DNA from: Armatimonadota bacterium
GTDB taxonomy: Bacteria; Armatimonadota; SYMT01
Assembly: GCA_041690135.1 (NCBI GenBank)
Contig: JAWLHY010000002.1
Location: 528,342 to 592,341 of the forward strand
Length of the DNA: 64,000 nucleotides
Direction of reading: 5' to 3'
Of this stretch, positions 6,834-24,864 are shown piece after piece. A model generated the notes under the pieces. It had not been told where the DNA came from, made no database searches, and worked only from the letters and a program-made list of their open reading frames with translations. A program made the translations under genes and the position numbers. Positions within the stretch are counted from its first letter, which is position 1. Each line of letters begins with the position of its first letter.

Positions 6834-7103
6834 TTAGTTCACGCTCACGTACAGGTCGCTCACCATCTGCACCCGCTGTTCGGGGCATAGGTGCTGCGGG
6901 CGGAAATCGCGCAGGTTGCGCAGGATCCGGCCGCGGGCTTCGTAATCGAGGTGCCGGTCGATCAAGCGGGTCATGTCTTCGGCCTTCTTGACCTGGTCAT
7001 CCCAGTCCGGCACGACGCGGAGCGGAAGTTCCTCGATCCCCGGCTCCAGTTCGACTTCCGGAGCGTGTGCGTTTATGTCTAGCTTCTGCTTATAGTCGAT
7101 CAT
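6834..7103 (-). CDS. Small hypothetical protein
   Basis: ATG 7103 with GAGGTAGGG upstream; GC-rich third positions; downstream hairpin. Confidence 0.6.
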   Translation of the reverse strand: MIDYKQKLDINAHAPEVELEPGIEELPLRVVPDWDDQVKKAEDMTRLIDRHLDYEARGRILRNLRDFRPQHLCPEQRVQMVSDLYVSVN

Positions 7104-7349
7104 CCCTACCTCTGGCTTCCGTAGTCCTGGGACGCTTAGCGCGTCCATTTACCTCTGCCTGCCGCCTCGCGGTCCACTTGCGGTGCGCAGGCTGGCAGCC
7201 CGGATTTAACCAGAAGTGCGCCAGACCAAACCCCCGGGGAGTTGGGGGCGAGGGGGACTATCGGGAGCGATCCGGCGGTTCAGCGCTACGGGTTAGGGCA
7301 CCGCTGGGAAGGCGGACTTGCAAGTGCCGGACCGGGGGACGACCGGGAC

Positions 7350-7709
7350 CTACGGTTGCTGGGAAGCCTCGGTGGTGAACACTACCTCGTGGATCTCCAG
7401 CACGTTGGGGCCCGCGAACATCTCCGCGGGAGGCCGGTTGCTGTGGGCGATGCGGAACGACTCGCTCCGGGTCCAATCCCAGAACGCCTCTTCGCTCTCC
7501 CAGTAGGTCTGGACCAAGTAATAACCCTGCTCCTCCGTTTCCTCATACTCGCCTGTCTTGTGACTGAAGCGCCGCTGGACGGGACGCATCACGAGGTTCT
7601 TGATGAACCCGGGGGATTGATCGATCAGGTGAGCGCGGTTGCGAAACCTATCTTCGAATTCGGCTTCATGACCAGCGGCTACGGGAATGCGGTTGGTGAC
7701 GACGAACAT
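7350..7709 (-). CDS. Antibiotic biosynthesis monooxygenase / IsdG-like heme-degrading monooxygenase family protein
   Basis: MFVVTNRIPV...FEDRFRNR...PGF...WESEEAFWDW..SESFRIAH. Confidence 0.85.
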   Translation of the reverse strand: MFVVTNRIPVAAGHEAEFEDRFRNRAHLIDQSPGFIKNLVMRPVQRRFSHKTGEYEETEEQGYYLVQTYWESEEAFWDWTRSESFRIAHSNRPPAEMFAGPNVLEIHEVVFTTEASQQP

Positions 7710-7813
7710 CGGGACTGCTCCATTGAATCGAAAAAGGAAGGGTTCGAACCCGGTGCAGGTAAACTGCCGCTGTCCAACCCTTCCCCGTTCTACCGGCCGC
7801 TACACGCAATCCT

Positions 7814-20054: not shown

Positions 20055-20854
20055 GACACGGAGACACAGAGGGCACACGGAGAGGAATGCGGAGAATTAA
20101 TCATCCACCCTTCCAAAGGCATTTCCCGACCCCTCACAGCCCCCCACCGGCCATCTCCGTGTTGACGTCCGGACCACCACAGGCTCGATGATTTGGAAGC
20201 TGCCGTGGTGAATCCGACAGAGGTCATGCGTCTTGCCGCGGAGTCCGAGAGATATCTCGGCAAGTACCCCCGTCAAGACTCCTCGCCGGCAGCCCGCCTG
20301 CACCCATCAACCCATCCGACGACCATCCTCACAGGTTGCTCCAGCCGGAGAGAGAACGCGAAATCGCGAAAGAACGAAGGACGCGAAAAGGGACAGCCCC
20401 TTCATCCTTCCGCCCACTACGGGCCGTACTGGGTTCATCCTTCTACAACGCCACCTCAGGTGACCCCCAGGGGCCTATGCACAGAATACACACAATACAC
20501 AAAACCCCTGGTCGCTTGCTACACAAAACTACACACAATTCGCTCGCGAAAGCTTCACCCGAGCCAACGGACCCGACCGGGAACTCTTCACCGTCACAGT
20601 CAACTAACCAGGCAGAGAAAACGCGCAAACGCGAGATGCCCTAGAGGGAGTCCTCCACGCGGAAGGGAAAGCCAGGAACACGAAATCACGAGAGAACGAA
20701 CGCACGAAAGACAGTTACCCCTTTCACCCTTCATCCTTCCGACTTCATCCTTCCGAAGCCCGTCATTCCGAGCCGCAAACTGTCTTGTGGTGCGGGAAAC
20801 GCCCGCATGCGAGGAACCTCTCACCGCCTCCAGAACGCCGCACCAGCAACCCGG

Positions 20855-21145
20855 GCCCGGCGGGCCGGGCAATTGTGATCCCCCCGGGTACCCGGGGCAC
20901 CCGTGGAGCGGGTCGGGTGGTGGGATAGCTCGAAGTGTCCGGTCCGCCACCCGTACACGCCCGGAAAGAGAGACCACGCCCGACTGCAGCGCGGGTAGAG
21001 TGACTGGGGCGCACGCCGAAGCCAGCCGCTAGCGACGGCCGGGTACCCACGATGTGGGTGGGGTGAGCGGGCAGGGAGCGTGAAAGGCCGAGCGCAGGCC
21101 AGAATCGCGTGAGGGTGGTGGACCGGACACAAGGGATGGGGGGAC
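20855..21145 (+). ncRNA. Structured non-coding element, copy 1 (unassigned)
   Basis: Shares ordered blocks with 24008-24290, including a ~75-nt nearly identical core; helix-preserving differences between copies. Confidence 0.6.
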
Positions 21146-21333
21146 TTACGCGGCAGCCGGAATGTGCACCAAAGCGACCATGCCACAGAGCGCTTCAGTC
21201 CCTGGATAAGCACCGAGAGCACCCATACCGCGACGGTCTCAACCCACGCCAACAGCCAACCTGACGCTACGTTCCACCAGTTCTCCAGCCCGATTGAGAA
21301 CGGGCTTCGCGCCCTAGGGCAAGAAAACCCGCC

Positions 21334-21846
21334 ATGAGACCGACACCCCCAACGAAAAGCTCCCTCACCGAGACCCGGCAACTCTGGCTGGACTTCTGGA
21401 CCCTCTTCGACGCCCGCCTTGCTGCCACCCCAGGCCACTCGTTGGCCCGGCGCAAACCTCAACCGAAACACTGGCTGAACTGGGGACTGGGAAACGGCAA
21501 CTGCTTCCTGGGAGTCCGCGGTCGCATCGATGAGGGCTGGCTTGCGGTCAACCTCTGGATCGATACCGGGGACGCGGCAGCCTCCTGGGCCCTCTTCGAG
21601 GCGTTGGAAGCACAGTGCGCGGCGATCGAGTCGGAACTGCGCCTGGTAGCTGGCGAACGGCTGGAGTGGCACCGCAAAGAGCATGCCCGGTCCAGCGAGA
21701 TCCTGCTGCGCCACGACTGGAACCTGGCGGATCGCAACTCCTGGCCGGACGCCCTGGACTGGCTGGCCCATCGGACTTTGGATTTTCACCACGTTCTCGC
21801 CGACCGGGTTCAACCAAAGTGCCCTAGCGCTGTGCCTTCAACTTGA
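21334..21846 (+). CDS. DUF4268-like protein
   Basis: FWTLF, PQPKHW, FEALEAQCAAIESEL, LEW, NSWPDALDWL pattern. Confidence 0.75.
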   Translation: MRPTPPTKSSLTETRQLWLDFWTLFDARLAATPGHSLARRKPQPKHWLNWGLGNGNCFLGVRGRIDEGWLAVNLWIDTGDAAASWALFEALEAQCAAIESELRLVAGERLEWHRKEHARSSEILLRHDWNLADRNSWPDALDWLAHRTLDFHHVLADRVQPKCPSAVPST

Positions 21847-23050
21847 TCAGGATCTTGAGCAGTTCCGCAGCGCACGCGCGTGCCTTCTCCTCGGTGTCGC
21901 AGGCACTGGAAGAAACGCGATGGACAAACGCCCCCTCGTTCTTGAACATGCTCACTCGCTGCTCTGCCTCAACTGGGGTCTCCCGGTGAACGGTTCCCCC
22001 ATCTACTTCTACAATCATCAGCACCCGGTCGCTGAACAAGACGAAGTCGGGTTCGATACGGGCGTAAGATTCGCCTCCCCGCAGAAATACGGGCAACGGA
22101 GCCATCGTGATTCCGGTGCGCTTCAGTGCGTGATAGAGATAGATCTCTGGTTGAGAGCGAAAGAGCAGGCCGTCCTCCTGCCGCGCCGCGATGTTGGTCG
22201 AGCGTACCCGGCCCTGGTTGTTGATCCCCTCGCCGTTCAGCCAATGGAGGGCCTCTTCCCGGATCTGCGGAGCAGACTGAACGGCAGCCGATATGTGAAC
22301 CGCCTCTAGCCAGTGCGCAGGCACCCCTTTGAAGAGTTCCTGGAGCGCTTCCCGGATTTCACGTTCGCACTCCTCGATATCGCTCGCCGACAGCTGCCCG
22401 TAAAGCCGTGGGGTGACCCGCACCGAGTACATCCAACCATAGGTGCCGCCGTCGTAGTTGTCGTAGCGCCAATTGGTGAATGAGCACTCCTCGGCGAATG
22501 TTAGAATTGCGACCTCACGCGCGGCACCCCGGCCCATGAACACTTGGATAAGTGTATCGGCCAGGGCGCGGGGCTCAAAAGGGGGTTCTGGCTCCGTTGA
22601 TCGGCCGGTCGGCACCAGACGTGCCTGTGGCGTGATCTCCACGAGCTTGAAAAGCGGACGGCCTGCAATCTGGCCTTGCTGTTGGAGTTCGCAGTTGTCC
22701 AGTTGGAGAAAGGCGTTGATCTCGCCTACCAGCCCTGTCACATCCTCTTGAGGTTGTGTCACGCCTGGGTGCACACACATCTCCAAAAACTTCGCGAACA
22801 CCTCGTGATCTGTCCGCGGAAGGTCGAGGTAATCGTTGAGCAGGTAATCATGATCCCAATCATCGTTGAAGACCATGTGCTGGTTGATATCAGCCTCTGC
22901 AGTCTCGAACCGACCGTCGGTCGACGGCATTGTACGGAGGTCCCAAATTCGCCTCAGGAAGCTGACCAGGCCAACTCGGCCATGGAAGGGTCGCGGCTGG
23001 AGTAGTAGCAGATCAACGAGGTCGCGGCGGGTGAGTTCAGAAATGGACAC
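21824..23050 (-). CDS. AbiJ N-terminal-like domain fused to a C-terminal PD-(D/E)xK (DUF559/Vsr-like) nuclease
   Basis: ISELTRRDL...FLRRIWDLRTMPSTDGRF..AEADINQHM..NDDW; C-terminal FRSQPE, EPDF, IVEVDGGTVH. Confidence 0.75.
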   Translation of the reverse strand: MSISELTRRDLVDLLLLQPRPFHGRVGLVSFLRRIWDLRTMPSTDGRFETAEADINQHMVFNDDWDHDYLLNDYLDLPRTDHEVFAKFLEMCVHPGVTQPQEDVTGLVGEINAFLQLDNCELQQQGQIAGRPLFKLVEITPQARLVPTGRSTEPEPPFEPRALADTLIQVFMGRGAAREVAILTFAEECSFTNWRYDNYDGGTYGWMYSVRVTPRLYGQLSASDIEECEREIREALQELFKGVPAHWLEAVHISAAVQSAPQIREEALHWLNGEGINNQGRVRSTNIAARQEDGLLFRSQPEIYLYHALKRTGITMAPLPVFLRGGESYARIEPDFVLFSDRVLMIVEVDGGTVHRETPVEAEQRVSMFKNEGAFVHRVSSSACDTEEKARACAAELLKILIKLKAQR

Positions 23051-23398
23051 GTTTTCATGATACCAAACAAACAGTAGCTAGGCAAGAGAGCACGTGCCTG
23101 GACACCATAAGCGTGTCCGGATCTGCCGGCCCGGAAATGGCCAGTTGTTAGCACAAGGTCAACCCGCGAACCACCATGATCAGCCTCCGTCACAGCACCG
23201 ACAGGTGTCTGGCTCCGGACGGCGATCAACCGGGCGACCGGCTCGGTCGTGGGGGAGGTGAGATTCCAGTTCTCCTCTCCCGGGGAGTAGCACACCGTGC
23301 TAGGCAAAAGGGCTTCCCTGACAGTTGTTGGCCAATCGAGGGAAGATATGCTGGCGAACAGCCGTAAGGATGACACCAACTGCGCTGAGGAGTTAGCC

Positions 23399-23719
23399 AT
23401 GAGCAATCCCTACAAGCCTGGGCGACCATTCAATCACGACCGAACCCCAGCCCCGAAGATAGCTGGCACCTACTGGTGGAACAACCCGGACGGTTCGCGA
23501 GCATACCAGGGAATCTCCAATAGTTTGGCGCGCCGTATCGGAGAGCACTGCGATAGTGGAAAGATTCCTCTAGGCACCACAATGCACTACATGGTGGCCG
23601 ACGAAGACGCAGATTATGAGGCTCTTCGGGAGCACGAGCGCAGGAAGTGTAAGCAACACCAGCCTACGGACAACAAGAGAGGGGGCGGAGGGGGGCGAAC
23701 ACCCAAGGGTGATAAGTGA
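23399..23719 (+). CDS. Small GIY-YIG-like nuclease
   Basis: AGTYWW...AYQGISNSLARRIGEH, conserved E in ALREHE, N in PTDNKR; GAGGAG upstream. Confidence 0.7.
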   Translation: MSNPYKPGRPFNHDRTPAPKIAGTYWWNNPDGSRAYQGISNSLARRIGEHCDSGKIPLGTTMHYMVADEDADYEALREHERRKCKQHQPTDNKRGGGGGRTPKGDK

Positions 23720-24007
23720 CCAGCGCATGGTTTGTTGACTTCCAAAGCCAAAACTTGCCCTTTCGCTGTGGTTGTGTTCCTGCGCAGGCAGGCATCCCGA
23801 AGGGCTGGGGAGCGACGCGGATTTCATCCCATCGCGAGACGAGACCACTGCAGTTGCGCTGTCACTACACTGCACTGGCCGGAACACACTCTTCCGGTCG
23901 ATCCCTAGGGCGGCCGACAGCGCCAACGGCAGCGAACCGCCATTCCACGTCCGTTCGGGTCACGATAAAGGCGCTCAATACGGTCCACGAAGGGGTGTGA
24001 ATCCGAC

Positions 24008-24290
24008 GCCCGGCAAAGCCGGGCAATTGTGATCTCCCCGGAGGGGGGATAGCTCGAAGATTTACGCCCCCTCGGGGTGCGCCGGGTCGCCGCCCGTCCA
24101 CGCCACGACTGGGCCAAGCGCCTGTTAGCAGCGCGGAACGCAGGTCCTGGTTTGCACGCCGAAGCCGGCCGCTAGCGACGGCCGGGTACCCACGAAGTGG
24201 GTGGGGCTGGCGGGCAGGGAGCGTGAAAGGCCGAGCGGAGGCTAGTTCCGCGGGAGGGTGGCGGCCCAAGGCAAGGGCTGGGGGCGACCC
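24008..24290 (+). ncRNA. Structured non-coding element, copy 2 (unassigned)
   Basis: Diverged direct repeat of 20855-21145. Confidence 0.6.
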
Positions 24291-24864
24291 CATGGTAGTC
24301 GCAATAGGAAACAAAACAACATACAGGAAGCTTCGTCAACTCGCGGACTAGGGGGCTCGCCCTATCTCTGCTGGGTAAACTCAAGTCGGTTGCGGCGGCA
24401 AGACTCTCCGCTTACGAGCCAACTTCCCTGACCAGGGGGCTCGCCACGTCGGTAACGGCGGCAAGATTTCCCACCGCGGTTCACCTTTGAAACTGCGGGT
24501 CTTGACCCGCGAAGTCGGCGCCCTGACCTCCCTCCTCGCGATGACGTCGTCTCCCTTTCGCAATTTCGCGTTTTCGTGTTGGCCCACGCAGCGTCTAATT
24601 ACAGGTCCCGCGACCACTGGCGCCAGATCGTGCTTGCCAGGGGTCATCAACCCCAGCACAGGGCAAGCACGGCGGCTGCCCCTACATTCCCCGTTTCCAT
24701 CCCGAGACGGAGAGCTCAACAACCCAACCTTTCGAGCGCCCCACAGCCCCTTTCCCCAATTTCCCTTTAATCTGCGCAATCTGTGGCTCCCTCCTTTCCC
24801 TTCCAATGCCCGTGCCCGCACTCGCCCTCTCCTTATCGTAATCCTCATCCTTATCGGCGCGGCC

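Follow-up and report, generated by a model that had tools for sequence, protein, structure and literature searches.

A dispersed family of structured intergenic repeats restricted to a lineage of Armatimonadota

Background

Among the described elements closest to the one reported here, bacterial interspersed mosaic elements (BIMEs) are built of Y and Z units that alternate in orientation, whereas BOX, Correia and ERIC repeats of Firmicutes or Proteobacteria are simple long hairpins, RUP and Correia being organised like miniature inverted-repeat transposable elements (MITEs) with terminal inverted repeats. The attC sites are simple imperfect palindromes of 57-141 nt with R and L boxes, lying in arrays beside intI, and the ends of IS200/IS605 elements are single hairpins. 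Large covarying non-coding folds are rare, and HEARO, OLE, ROOL and GOLLD led to new biology. Here we analyse a 64,000-nt stretch of DNA from an Armatimonadota bacterium (assembly GCA_041690135.1, contig JAWLHY010000002.1, positions 528,342 to 592,341 of the forward strand), hereafter the window, which is C2:528342-592341 in our numbering of this 9.1-Mb genome, G000. Two non-coding segments of the window belong to a previously undescribed, lineage-restricted family of dispersed repeats that is part of no known family. With more than 100 diverged copies in one genome of a poorly studied phylum, this family offers unusually good covariation evidence for a fold that has no counterpart in Rfam. 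It illustrates that a dispersed repeat can be kept as structure rather than as sequence, which bears on the question of whether repeats like the repetitive extragenic palindromes (REPs) are parasitic or serve as tools of the host.

We class the element as a dispersed structured intergenic repeat, unusual in how large it is, in its branched fold, in how deeply it covaries and in the phylum that carries it. Like REP sequences, BIMEs and the REP doublets known as REPINs, as described by Bertels and Rainey (2011; PMC3116915 and PMC3337134), it is intergenic, non-coding, of high copy number and persistent in its lineage, and it occurs as singlets and as spaced inverted doublets. It is distinguished from a REP, a palindrome of 20-35 nt, by its length of ~250 nt and its approximately ten helices; from a REPIN by the fact that the arms of its head-to-head doublets (4 in G000 and 18 in a second genome, G005) come from different subfamilies and do not pair with each other; and from the systems of REP-associated tyrosine transposases (RAYTs) by the fact that no RAYT-type gene is flanked by copies, the Y1 proteins of these genomes falling below the REP-associated cut-off. 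Its likeness to BIMEs extends to two unit types that alternate in orientation and to a mosaic reuse of hairpin modules. With BOX, Correia and ERIC it shares the character of a modular, non-coding, dispersed intergenic repeat of 100-300 nt that would fold as RNA if co-transcribed (Croucher et al. 2011, PMC3049150). Unlike them, it is branched, has long-range closing helices and an invariant wobble pair, lacks terminal inverted repeats and is found in Armatimonadota. The HEARO or omega-RNA family (RF02033) is a structured RNA of 200-300 nt that this candidate RNA resembles in its many, often ORF-less copies (lacking an open reading frame) and in a scaffold beside variable sequence; however, the element gives no Rfam match at E<=10, TnpB is missing from all seven genomes of the host family, and no nuclease recurs among the neighbours. 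As in attC sites and IS200/IS605 hairpins, a strand-specific fold is kept over sequence, copies may be co-oriented and cassettes separated, and the two direct copies in the window bracket three small genes. By inspection, the element differs from both in having multiple junctions and loops that are strongly conserved, and in occurring as head-to-head pairs as well as solitary, dispersed copies.

Identification and distribution of the element

Inspection of the window by sequence alone had pointed to two diverged copies of a ~290-nt structured element at 20855-21145 and 24008-24290, without assigning them to a known family, and had treated them as a local pair (the original prediction). Both copies are indeed present at these positions and share a series of blocks in the same order (the GCCCGGC/GCCGGGC hairpin, TTGTGATC, GGGATAGCTCGAAG, CAGCGCGG, the core, GAGGGTGG and CAAGGG). 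A MAFFT alignment of 20840-21160 with 23995-24300 gives a mean column identity of 83%, and the longest gap-free block, 21004-21124 against 24147-24267, is 87% identical. The likeness is blockwise, with unrelated or missing sequence between the blocks, and each copy has an additional hairpin of its own (31 nt in copy 1 and 23 nt in copy 2; Table 1). One 26-nt word of the core is present exactly twice in the window; 0 of 100 dinucleotide shuffles contained any match to it. The two copies are not, however, a local pair but members of a dispersed multi-copy repeat, as BLAST followed by nhmmer recovered 18 matches at E<=0.01 in G000. Ten of these (E 1.9e-61 to 5.5e-44) resemble the window copies and are full-length. 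Another five (E 1.1e-25 to 1.6e-13) either come from a second, diverged subfamily or have partly decayed, and the remaining three are fragments. In G000 the second subfamily always lies head-to-head with a copy of the first, in four pairs whose 5' ends are ~110-250 nt apart. The complete unit consists of a core of ~240-300 nt, a short AACC-type leader and an A/C-rich tail, and extends ~65-85 nt beyond the core, judging from copies at a CRISPR locus described below.

A covariance model of the 3' domain (R1; 140 positions, the long-range helices lying outside the search model) matched 16 loci in G000, at least 122 in G005 and 9 in a third genome, G006; 150 candidates were scored per genome, so that the G005 count is a lower bound. 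These are three of seven genomes of the same family, and R1 had no match in the other four. In an evenly sampled survey of the phylum 3 of 151 genomes matched R1 at E<=1e-5, all of them from this family, with no match in the 144 genomes outside it. A strict exact pattern matched nothing in genome contigs; a relaxed pattern used in its place found 41 loci among 185,579 species genomes, 40 of which are in one metagenome-assembled genome (MAG) labelled Armatimonadota. The relaxed pattern also found seven metagenome contigs, which together with one MAG contig yielded 10 further copies, and it matched no viral contig. The 41st locus (L125, 133-348, minus strand) is a true copy (nhmmer E=4.6e-21). 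Its 5.7-kb contig comes from a MAG with the label Actinomycetes, which reflects either mis-binning of the contig or horizontal transfer. BLAST of copy 2 against 60 relatives gave just two matches of 28-32 nt, which is chance level. The 105 copies aligned below are old and diverse, falling into 62 clusters at 16% distance, with a mutual divergence of 12-40%.

No Rfam 15 family matched at gathering thresholds anywhere in the window or in 81,934 nt from 10 loci that hold copies of G000 and related ones, and at E<=10 the sole match in 20300-24800 was a chance SNORD56-like one outside the element; the original prediction had likewise been unable to name a family. Full-text searches of the literature on structured RNAs and repeats of Armatimonadetes and on covarying intergenic repeats, supplementary motif lists excluded, brought up no description of such an element. 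Passages of PMC9067536, a work on candidate structured RNAs in CRISPR operons, make no mention outside its supplements of type I-E systems, transposons or MITEs. A profile of the family would improve annotation; copies now yield spurious ORFs in the genomes that bear the element.

Conservation of the fold

From 154 nhmmer matches in the three genomes and in metagenomes we assembled an alignment of 105 distinct copies, each covering at least 195 of 243 profile positions, without N and without duplicates. The RNAalifold consensus of this alignment, with columns of more than 70% gaps set aside, is a ten-helix fold with 62 pairs in 15 helix segments. It begins with the hairpins P1 and P2, continues with the long-range helices P3 and P4, which enclose an inner three-way domain around CUAGCG and GUGAAAGG, and ends with a 3' hairpin; hairpin insertions are tolerated at three or four tips. 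The first pair of P3 covaries (CG in 51 copies, AU in 22 and UA in 18), and the P3 pair 84-385 is U-G in all 105 copies, an invariant wobble. In P8 (24164-24170/24229-24236) four of five pairs covary, GGCC/GGCC giving way to GCCC/GGGC and CGCC/GGCG, and P4 was also recovered as inverted repeat I1 in a repeat scan of the window. The P1 region and the 3' hairpin are poorly aligned between genomes and show lower pairing (82% and 76%), and most of the aligned copies either lack the REP-like hairpin that caps P9 or have a short loop in its place. The 10 own-genome copies by themselves gave an RNAalifold structure of 54 pairs, 12 of them with compensatory changes. The two own-genome subfamilies have wholly different yet self-complementary sequences in P1, P2 and P4: P1 changes from GCCCGGC/GCCGGGC to GGGCGT/ACGCCC, P2 from ATCTCCCC/GGGGGGAT to GACCTCCCC/GGGGAGGTC, and the long-range helix from CCGGGTCGCCGCCC/GGGTGGCGGCCC to GCCGAAGCTCCC/GGGAGCTTCGG. 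As the arms of a head-to-head pair thus carry differently compensated helices, the selected structure lies within one arm and not, as in a REPIN, between the arms.

Over the 62 consensus pairs 90.4% of the cells are paired, as against 77.3 +/- 0.3% with shuffled 3' partners (the observed figure being reached in 0 of 500 shuffles) and 39.8-48.2% with partners slid by 1-3 columns. Double-change cells number 785 where 234 +/- 14 are expected, 37 of the 62 pairs are changed on both sides against 31.8 expected (1 of 500 shuffles), and the covariation score is 0.377 compared with 0.145 after shuffling. The 6420 cells at paired positions comprise 5213 Watson-Crick, 593 G·U, 110 A·C and 504 other combinations, and pairing drops from 90.4% on the strand as given to 82.9% on its complement. 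The excess of G·U over A·C indicates that one strand is selected, and since copies lie on both genome strands this bias belongs to the element and not to the chromosome; the plus-strand G-U bias noticed in the two window copies thus holds across the family. We also grouped the 105 copies into clusters, with distance cut-offs of 16, 20 or 25%, and set every copy against the consensus of its own cluster. Departures from Watson-Crick consensus pairs were G·U in 29, 57 and 83 cases and A·C in 6, 19 and 28 at the three cut-offs, respectively (binomial p = 1.2e-4, 1.5e-5 and 1.7e-7), and paired columns differed from the cluster consensus at 3.6% of sites as opposed to 7.7% in unpaired columns. These changes within subfamilies fit purifying selection on the fold.

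It is hence the fold, and not the primary sequence, that is conserved, and selection on a single-strand fold is strongly supported, as the original prediction had proposed from two copies. The individual helices named there fared less well: CTGG/CCAG and the GCGC/GCGC versus TTGC/GCGG helix lie outside the 105-copy consensus, and CGCG/CGCG is part of it; as this helix never varies it is uninformative, and is neither supported nor contradicted. The best-supported helices, P2, P4 and P8, are ones that had not been named. Two further pairings were considered and rejected. The 10 own-genome copies had predicted that the CGC following P4 might alternatively pair with the GCG ahead of GAGGG; this was dropped because the 5' partner is not conserved in G005. 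A closing helix P0, in which the AACC leader would pair with the GGTAG tail, was considered because the two seemed complementary by eye in several copies. It was rejected because the duplex of leader and tail from one copy is no longer than that of mismatched leaders and tails (5.80 versus 5.27 +/- 1.24 in G000, and 5.56 versus 5.54 over all copies).

Copies in a type I-E CRISPR locus

Contig C3 of G000 carries at ~830,400-850,200 (loci L002, L004, L034 and L037) a type I-E locus with three arrays of the repeat CTTGTCCCCACGCACGTGGGGGTGAACCG; its genes, read from translations, are cse1-, cse2-, cas7-, cas5- and cas6e-like, followed by cas1 and cas2. Four of the 18 G000 copies occupy spacer slots in this locus, two of them after the array between cas6e and cas1 and two after the array behind cas2. 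Each lies at the trailer end, between degenerate repeats and in the sense of array (pre-crRNA) transcription. The third array end is empty and has one repeat, whereas the array end after cas2 has a repeat, the ~330-nt element and another repeat, with both flanks conserved between the two sites. The change from an empty site (R) to a filled one (repeat-element-repeat, R-E-R) implies that the element entered, or was copied into, a spacer slot with duplication of the repeat, which could be due either to an integrase or to recombination between repeats. This event is itself an oddity. Most copies have no flanking CRISPR repeat. The element itself was rejected as a CRISPR spacer, as repeats flank only 4 of the 18 G000 copies and the unit of ~330 nt compares with spacers of ~32 nt. 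Type I-E cas1 orthologues (70% identity) are present in two family genomes that lack the element, while Cas1 yields only a 28%-identical partial match in G005 and none in G006. The same locus contains a second conserved non-spacer unit of at least ~150 nt (...ACGACAACCAGCG...GGTAACCTCATCCCCCTC...CGCGGGGCGTAAACTTCTCC...; C3 ~848,380-848,900, 831,000-831,330 and 830,400-830,550), which directly follows terminal or solitary CRISPR repeats in four places.

The REP-like hairpin at the P9 tip has a wider distribution: GGTACCCAC-GNA-GTGGGTGG occurs at 42 sites genome-wide with at most two mismatches, mostly inside other repeat families, and elsewhere in the genome such hairpins are accompanied by TTTACGCCCC..GGGG and CTCTGCGTCGGAGAG modules. 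The optional TTTACGCCCCCTCGGGGTG hairpin of copy 2 resembles the TTTACGCCCC..GGGG modules that flank them. The reuse of the P9-tip hairpin in several repeat families indicates that the genome holds a mosaic system of hairpin modules, and such mosaic modules resemble BIMEs.

Genomic arrangement and candidate partner enzymes

Copies sit only between genes and in either orientation, as solitary units, in tandem or as head-to-head pairs of the two subfamilies. In 367 kb fetched from G005 there are 52 copies, 36 of which form 18 head-to-head pairs, and these pairs stand between divergent as well as convergent genes. The next downstream gene is co-directional in 22 and opposed in 28 of the 50 G005 copies with a called neighbour, a tally that is approximate because the genes were called with a home-made GC-frame caller. 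This random orientation rules out a role as a 5' untranslated region or leader, which had been considered for own-genome ORFs that start 100-250 nt downstream, and, together with the unrelatedness of the downstream genes, a role as a riboswitch or other cis-regulatory leader. The element is neither a cis-regulatory leader nor autonomous. Tandem arrays of copies and 3' half-copies, the unit measuring ~400-600 nt, are present in G006. One region of G005 (L071-L072) appears prophage-like by eye, with terminase-, portal- and capsid-like genes, and five of its eight copies are antisense to the flanking plus-strand genes. At L064 (G005:C8, ~6,850-7,730) the flanks of one head-to-head composite are inverted repeats of each other over ~50 nt, a palindrome beyond the usual unit ends that hints at inverted duplication. 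A MITE was rejected, since by eye the ends of the best-defined G005 composite are not mutual inverted repeats, and flanking direct repeats are absent but for the one CRISPR locus.

Tabulation of the neighbouring genes, a check suggested with the original prediction, brought up no recurring partner: the 269 proteins encoded within 2.5 kb of 113 matches form only clusters of housekeeping paralogues. TnpB (PF07282) was found in none of the seven family genomes and in 8 of 14 control genomes, and a search for IscB (RRXRR) gave no match but is uninformative, the control genomes being silent too. An omega-RNA of TnpB or IscB was rejected on the absence of TnpB from the seven genomes and of any nuclease-like cluster among the 269 neighbours. 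IS110 recombinases (PF01548) number none in G000, two in G005 and one in G006, and as none of these three loci contains the element at E<=10, a bridge or seek RNA of IS110 was likewise rejected. Reverse transcriptases number two in G000 and five in G006, with none in the genome that has most copies. Y1 transposases of the IS200 type are present in six of the seven family genomes, including three without the element; in the three element-bearing genomes they number 9, 5 and 6 and are stand-alone genes. These Y1 proteins score as IS200 transposases, the model for REP-associated tyrosine transposases reaching 31 bits as compared with an NCBIfam cut-off of 80, and the 10 Y1 loci examined contain no element copy at E<=10. 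Large proteins encoded beside two partial copies were considered as partner nucleases and dismissed, as by eye they are an adhesin-like repeat protein and a methyltransferase/restriction-like protein.

Interpretation

We tentatively favour the reading that the selected molecule is an RNA, which would act as a folded module in cis upon read-through. Several features suggest an RNA: one wobble never varies, conserved purine-rich motifs lie densely in the unpaired regions, ~200 nt are enclosed by long-range helices, the sites are strictly intergenic and near gene ends, and there are signs of selection within subfamilies; that all four copies of the CRISPR locus lie in the sense of pre-crRNA transcription is a further RNA-like feature. 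The element would multiply by duplication or insertion at the level of DNA, the conversion of a CRISPR repeat to R-E-R being one possible route of spreading. Transcription from neighbouring genes may then read through a copy, and the resulting folded RNA could act in cis on the ends, processing or stability of the transcript, in the manner of REP, BOX or Correia repeats; a head-to-head pair would provide a transcript from either side with one sense copy. Several points weigh against this reading. At neither window copy is there a sigma-70-like promoter or an intrinsic terminator (one promoter-like site was found, elsewhere, against 1.0 expected), and the centres of head-to-head pairs show by eye no conserved AT-rich promoter. 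For about half of the single copies, transcription from the neighbours would yield the antisense strand, on the calls of the home-made gene caller. The fold was tested on the very alignment from which RNAalifold derived it, an advantage over the slid controls that concerns mainly the proportion of cells paired; the shuffle control ignores the relatedness of the copies; and the subfamily test mixes private with shared changes, so that selection on every copy is inseparable from selection only at copying. Further, all eight single copies in a ~36-kb prophage-like region lie on one strand, between genes (L071-L072, G005:C40:10001-42000), and C(GNA)G triloops are frequent among the terminal loops; these two features are at least as compatible with single-stranded DNA (ssDNA) as with RNA.

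A folded ssDNA is accordingly a close and serious, though less probable, rival to the RNA, and these two alternatives, a large non-coding RNA and a folded ssDNA element, are the same two that the original prediction had offered. Here the strand would be exposed in replication, repair or transfer and serve as the substrate of an enzyme acting in trans (an HUH/Y1 transposase, for example, or a tyrosine recombinase or Cas1), and the family would consist of non-autonomous mobile elements that depend on their structure, much larger counterparts of REPINs, IS200/IS605 ends and attC. The high copy number, the sharp unit boundaries, the mixture of solitary, tandem and head-to-head arrangements, the orientation independent of neighbours, the lack of promoter or terminator at the window copies and the local co-orientation over the prophage-like region all speak for such an element. 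So do the many C(GNA)G triloops, which are unusually stable in DNA, the nesting of the separate 42-copy REP-like hairpin family in it, the one insertion with CRISPR-repeat duplication and the stand-alone Y1 genes of all three element-bearing genomes. However, no enzyme is linked to the copies: Y1 genes also occur in three of the four element-free genomes of the family, 0 of 10 Y1 loci hold a copy, TnpB is missing from the family, and IS110 is absent from G000 and not adjacent elsewhere. P1 and the 3' hairpin differ in sequence, unlike the ends of IS200/IS605, and terminal inverted repeats or target-site duplications are not seen outside the CRISPR locus. The differently compensated helices in the arms of a pair also speak against a hairpin formed between arms. 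Moreover, to our knowledge a ten-helix fold with an invariant wobble (G·T in DNA) and helices spanning ~200 nt is far more complex than any known ssDNA recombination site. It is rather unlikely that the element is the nucleic-acid half of an unrecognised mobile system, its fold being a catalytic or guide RNA or an ssDNA substrate for a protein encoded elsewhere, comparable to HEARO RNAs before IscB was understood, which can also enter CRISPR arrays as a ~330-nt 'giant spacer' with repeat duplication; through such entry repeats and CRISPR loci would exchange sequence in a way that is new.

Also unlikely is a structured RNA that acts in trans, as a ribozyme or as the guide or scaffold of an unrecognised ribonucleoprotein, with the copies as by-products of mobility, which is how HEARO copies appeared before the omega-RNAs of IscB were understood. 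Such an RNA would account for a fold that is complex and covaries strongly, in which unpaired nucleotides are conserved and the peripheral stems vary, for the many ORF-less copies with a variable 3' tail behind a conserved scaffold, and for the lack of an Rfam match; but the neighbours include no recurring protein, TnpB is absent and IS110 unlinked, the genome with most copies has no reverse transcriptase, no promoter was found, and more than 100 copies diverged by 12-40% are unlike what a single trans-acting RNA needs. We regard as very unlikely a CRISPR-associated element, that is, a giant spacer or array-end RNA released by Cas6e, the scattered copies of which would be orphan mini-arrays. 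The four copies at trailer ends of the I-E arrays, between degenerate repeats and in array sense, and the single repeat at the paralogous array end are what such an element would predict, and by eye copy 2 and one other single copy are preceded by a weak repeat-like sequence. On the other hand the element is not co-distributed with the I-E system, which is present as cas1 in element-free genomes and distant or missing in G005 and G006, most copies lack flanking repeats, and the unit is ten times as long as a spacer. A decayed coding sequence or a chance similarity has a negligible likelihood. Frames are open in 100 of 315 cases on the minus strand and in 25 of 315 on the plus strand, and the former fit the C/T-rich complement, with no conserved frame. 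The lengths of the 105 copies (239-306 nt) are spread evenly over the residues modulo 3 (28/37/40) and optional inserts are of arbitrary length, in keeping with the earlier statement that no conserved ORF crosses the element, and neither the covariation in nested helices, the strand-specific G·U excess nor the absence of the 26-nt core word from all 100 shuffles would be expected of such a sequence. The RNA acting in cis remains the reading that we prefer.

Features of the window

The coordinates of the two copies and of their parts are collected in Table 1.

Table 1. Positions in the window of the two element copies, their helices and adjoining sequences
Feature	Coordinates	Strand	Remarks
Element copy 1	20847..21153	+	CAACC leader (20847-20851), core, to 3' hairpin; nhmmer E=8.5e-51; R1 model 101.3 bits (3' domain)
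Element copy 2	24000..24295	+	AATCC leader, core, to 3' hairpin GGGGGCGACCCC; nhmmer E=1.2e-59; R1 123.1 bits
P1 hairpin, copy 2 (GCCCGGC AAA GCCGGGC)	24008..24024	+	Copy 1: 20855-20870; hairpin kept in partner subfamily as GGGCGT/ACGCCC
P2 hairpin, copy 2	24032..24050 (24032-24040/24042-24050)	+	7/9 pairs changed on both sides; 94.8% of cells paired
P2, copy 1	20878-20886/20918-20926	+	Extra hairpin 20887-20917 at tip
P3 5' strand AGCTC with GGGCT	24051..24055 with 24275-24279	+	Copy 1: 20927-20931 with 21133-21137
Optional hairpin, TTTACGCCCCCTCGGGGTG module	24058..24080	+	Of the window copies, in copy 2 only; in 1/15 aligned own-genome copies
P4 5' strand, 15-bp long-range helix closing the core	24081..24095 with 24256-24270	+	13/15 pairs changed on both sides; 95.2% paired
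P4, copy 1	20938-20952 with 21113-21127	+	
P8/P9 domain, GCCGGCC/GGCCGAGC around CTAGC...GCGTG and conserved GUGAAAGG	24164..24236	+	Copy 1: 21021-21093
Nested REP-like hairpin GGTACCCAC-GAA-GTGGGTGG, P9 tip	24185..24204	+	Copy 1: 21042-21061
A/C-rich 3' tail of copy 2 (GGTAGTCGCAATAGGAAACAAAACAACATAC...)	24296..24350	+	Weakly conserved across own-genome tails
Possible decayed CRISPR-repeat-like sequence GTCCACGAAGGGGTGTGAATCCG, directly 5' of copy 2	23983..24007	+	Compared with CTTGTCCCCACGCACGTGGGGGTGAACCG by eye; weak likeness

Between the two copies lie genes for a DUF4268 protein (21334-21846, plus strand), a protein with an AbiJ N-terminal domain (21824-23050, minus strand) and a GIY-YIG protein (23297-23719, plus strand). 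This islet (21334-23719) has a GC content of 58-64% compared with ~70% in its flanks, the AbiJ_NTD3 protein is 408 aa long and the GIY-YIG protein is small; with a copy of the element on either side, the stretch has the look of a small defence or mobile islet. In our view the repeats accumulated in a permissive island and have no functional link to the islet genes. Just upstream of copy 1, at 20193-20850, are ~650 nt without a credible gene that are A/C-rich (AT skew 0.275, GC skew -0.159) and contain repeated CTTCATCCTTCCGA. Downstream of copy 2, at 24341-24466, there are short direct repeats, TCGCGGACTAGGGGGCTCGCC/TCCCTGACCAGGGGGCTCGCC and CAAGTCGGTTGCGGCGGCAAGA/CACGTCGGTAACGGCGGCAAGA, and a similar motif, CTAGGGGGCT, precedes another copy on contig C7.

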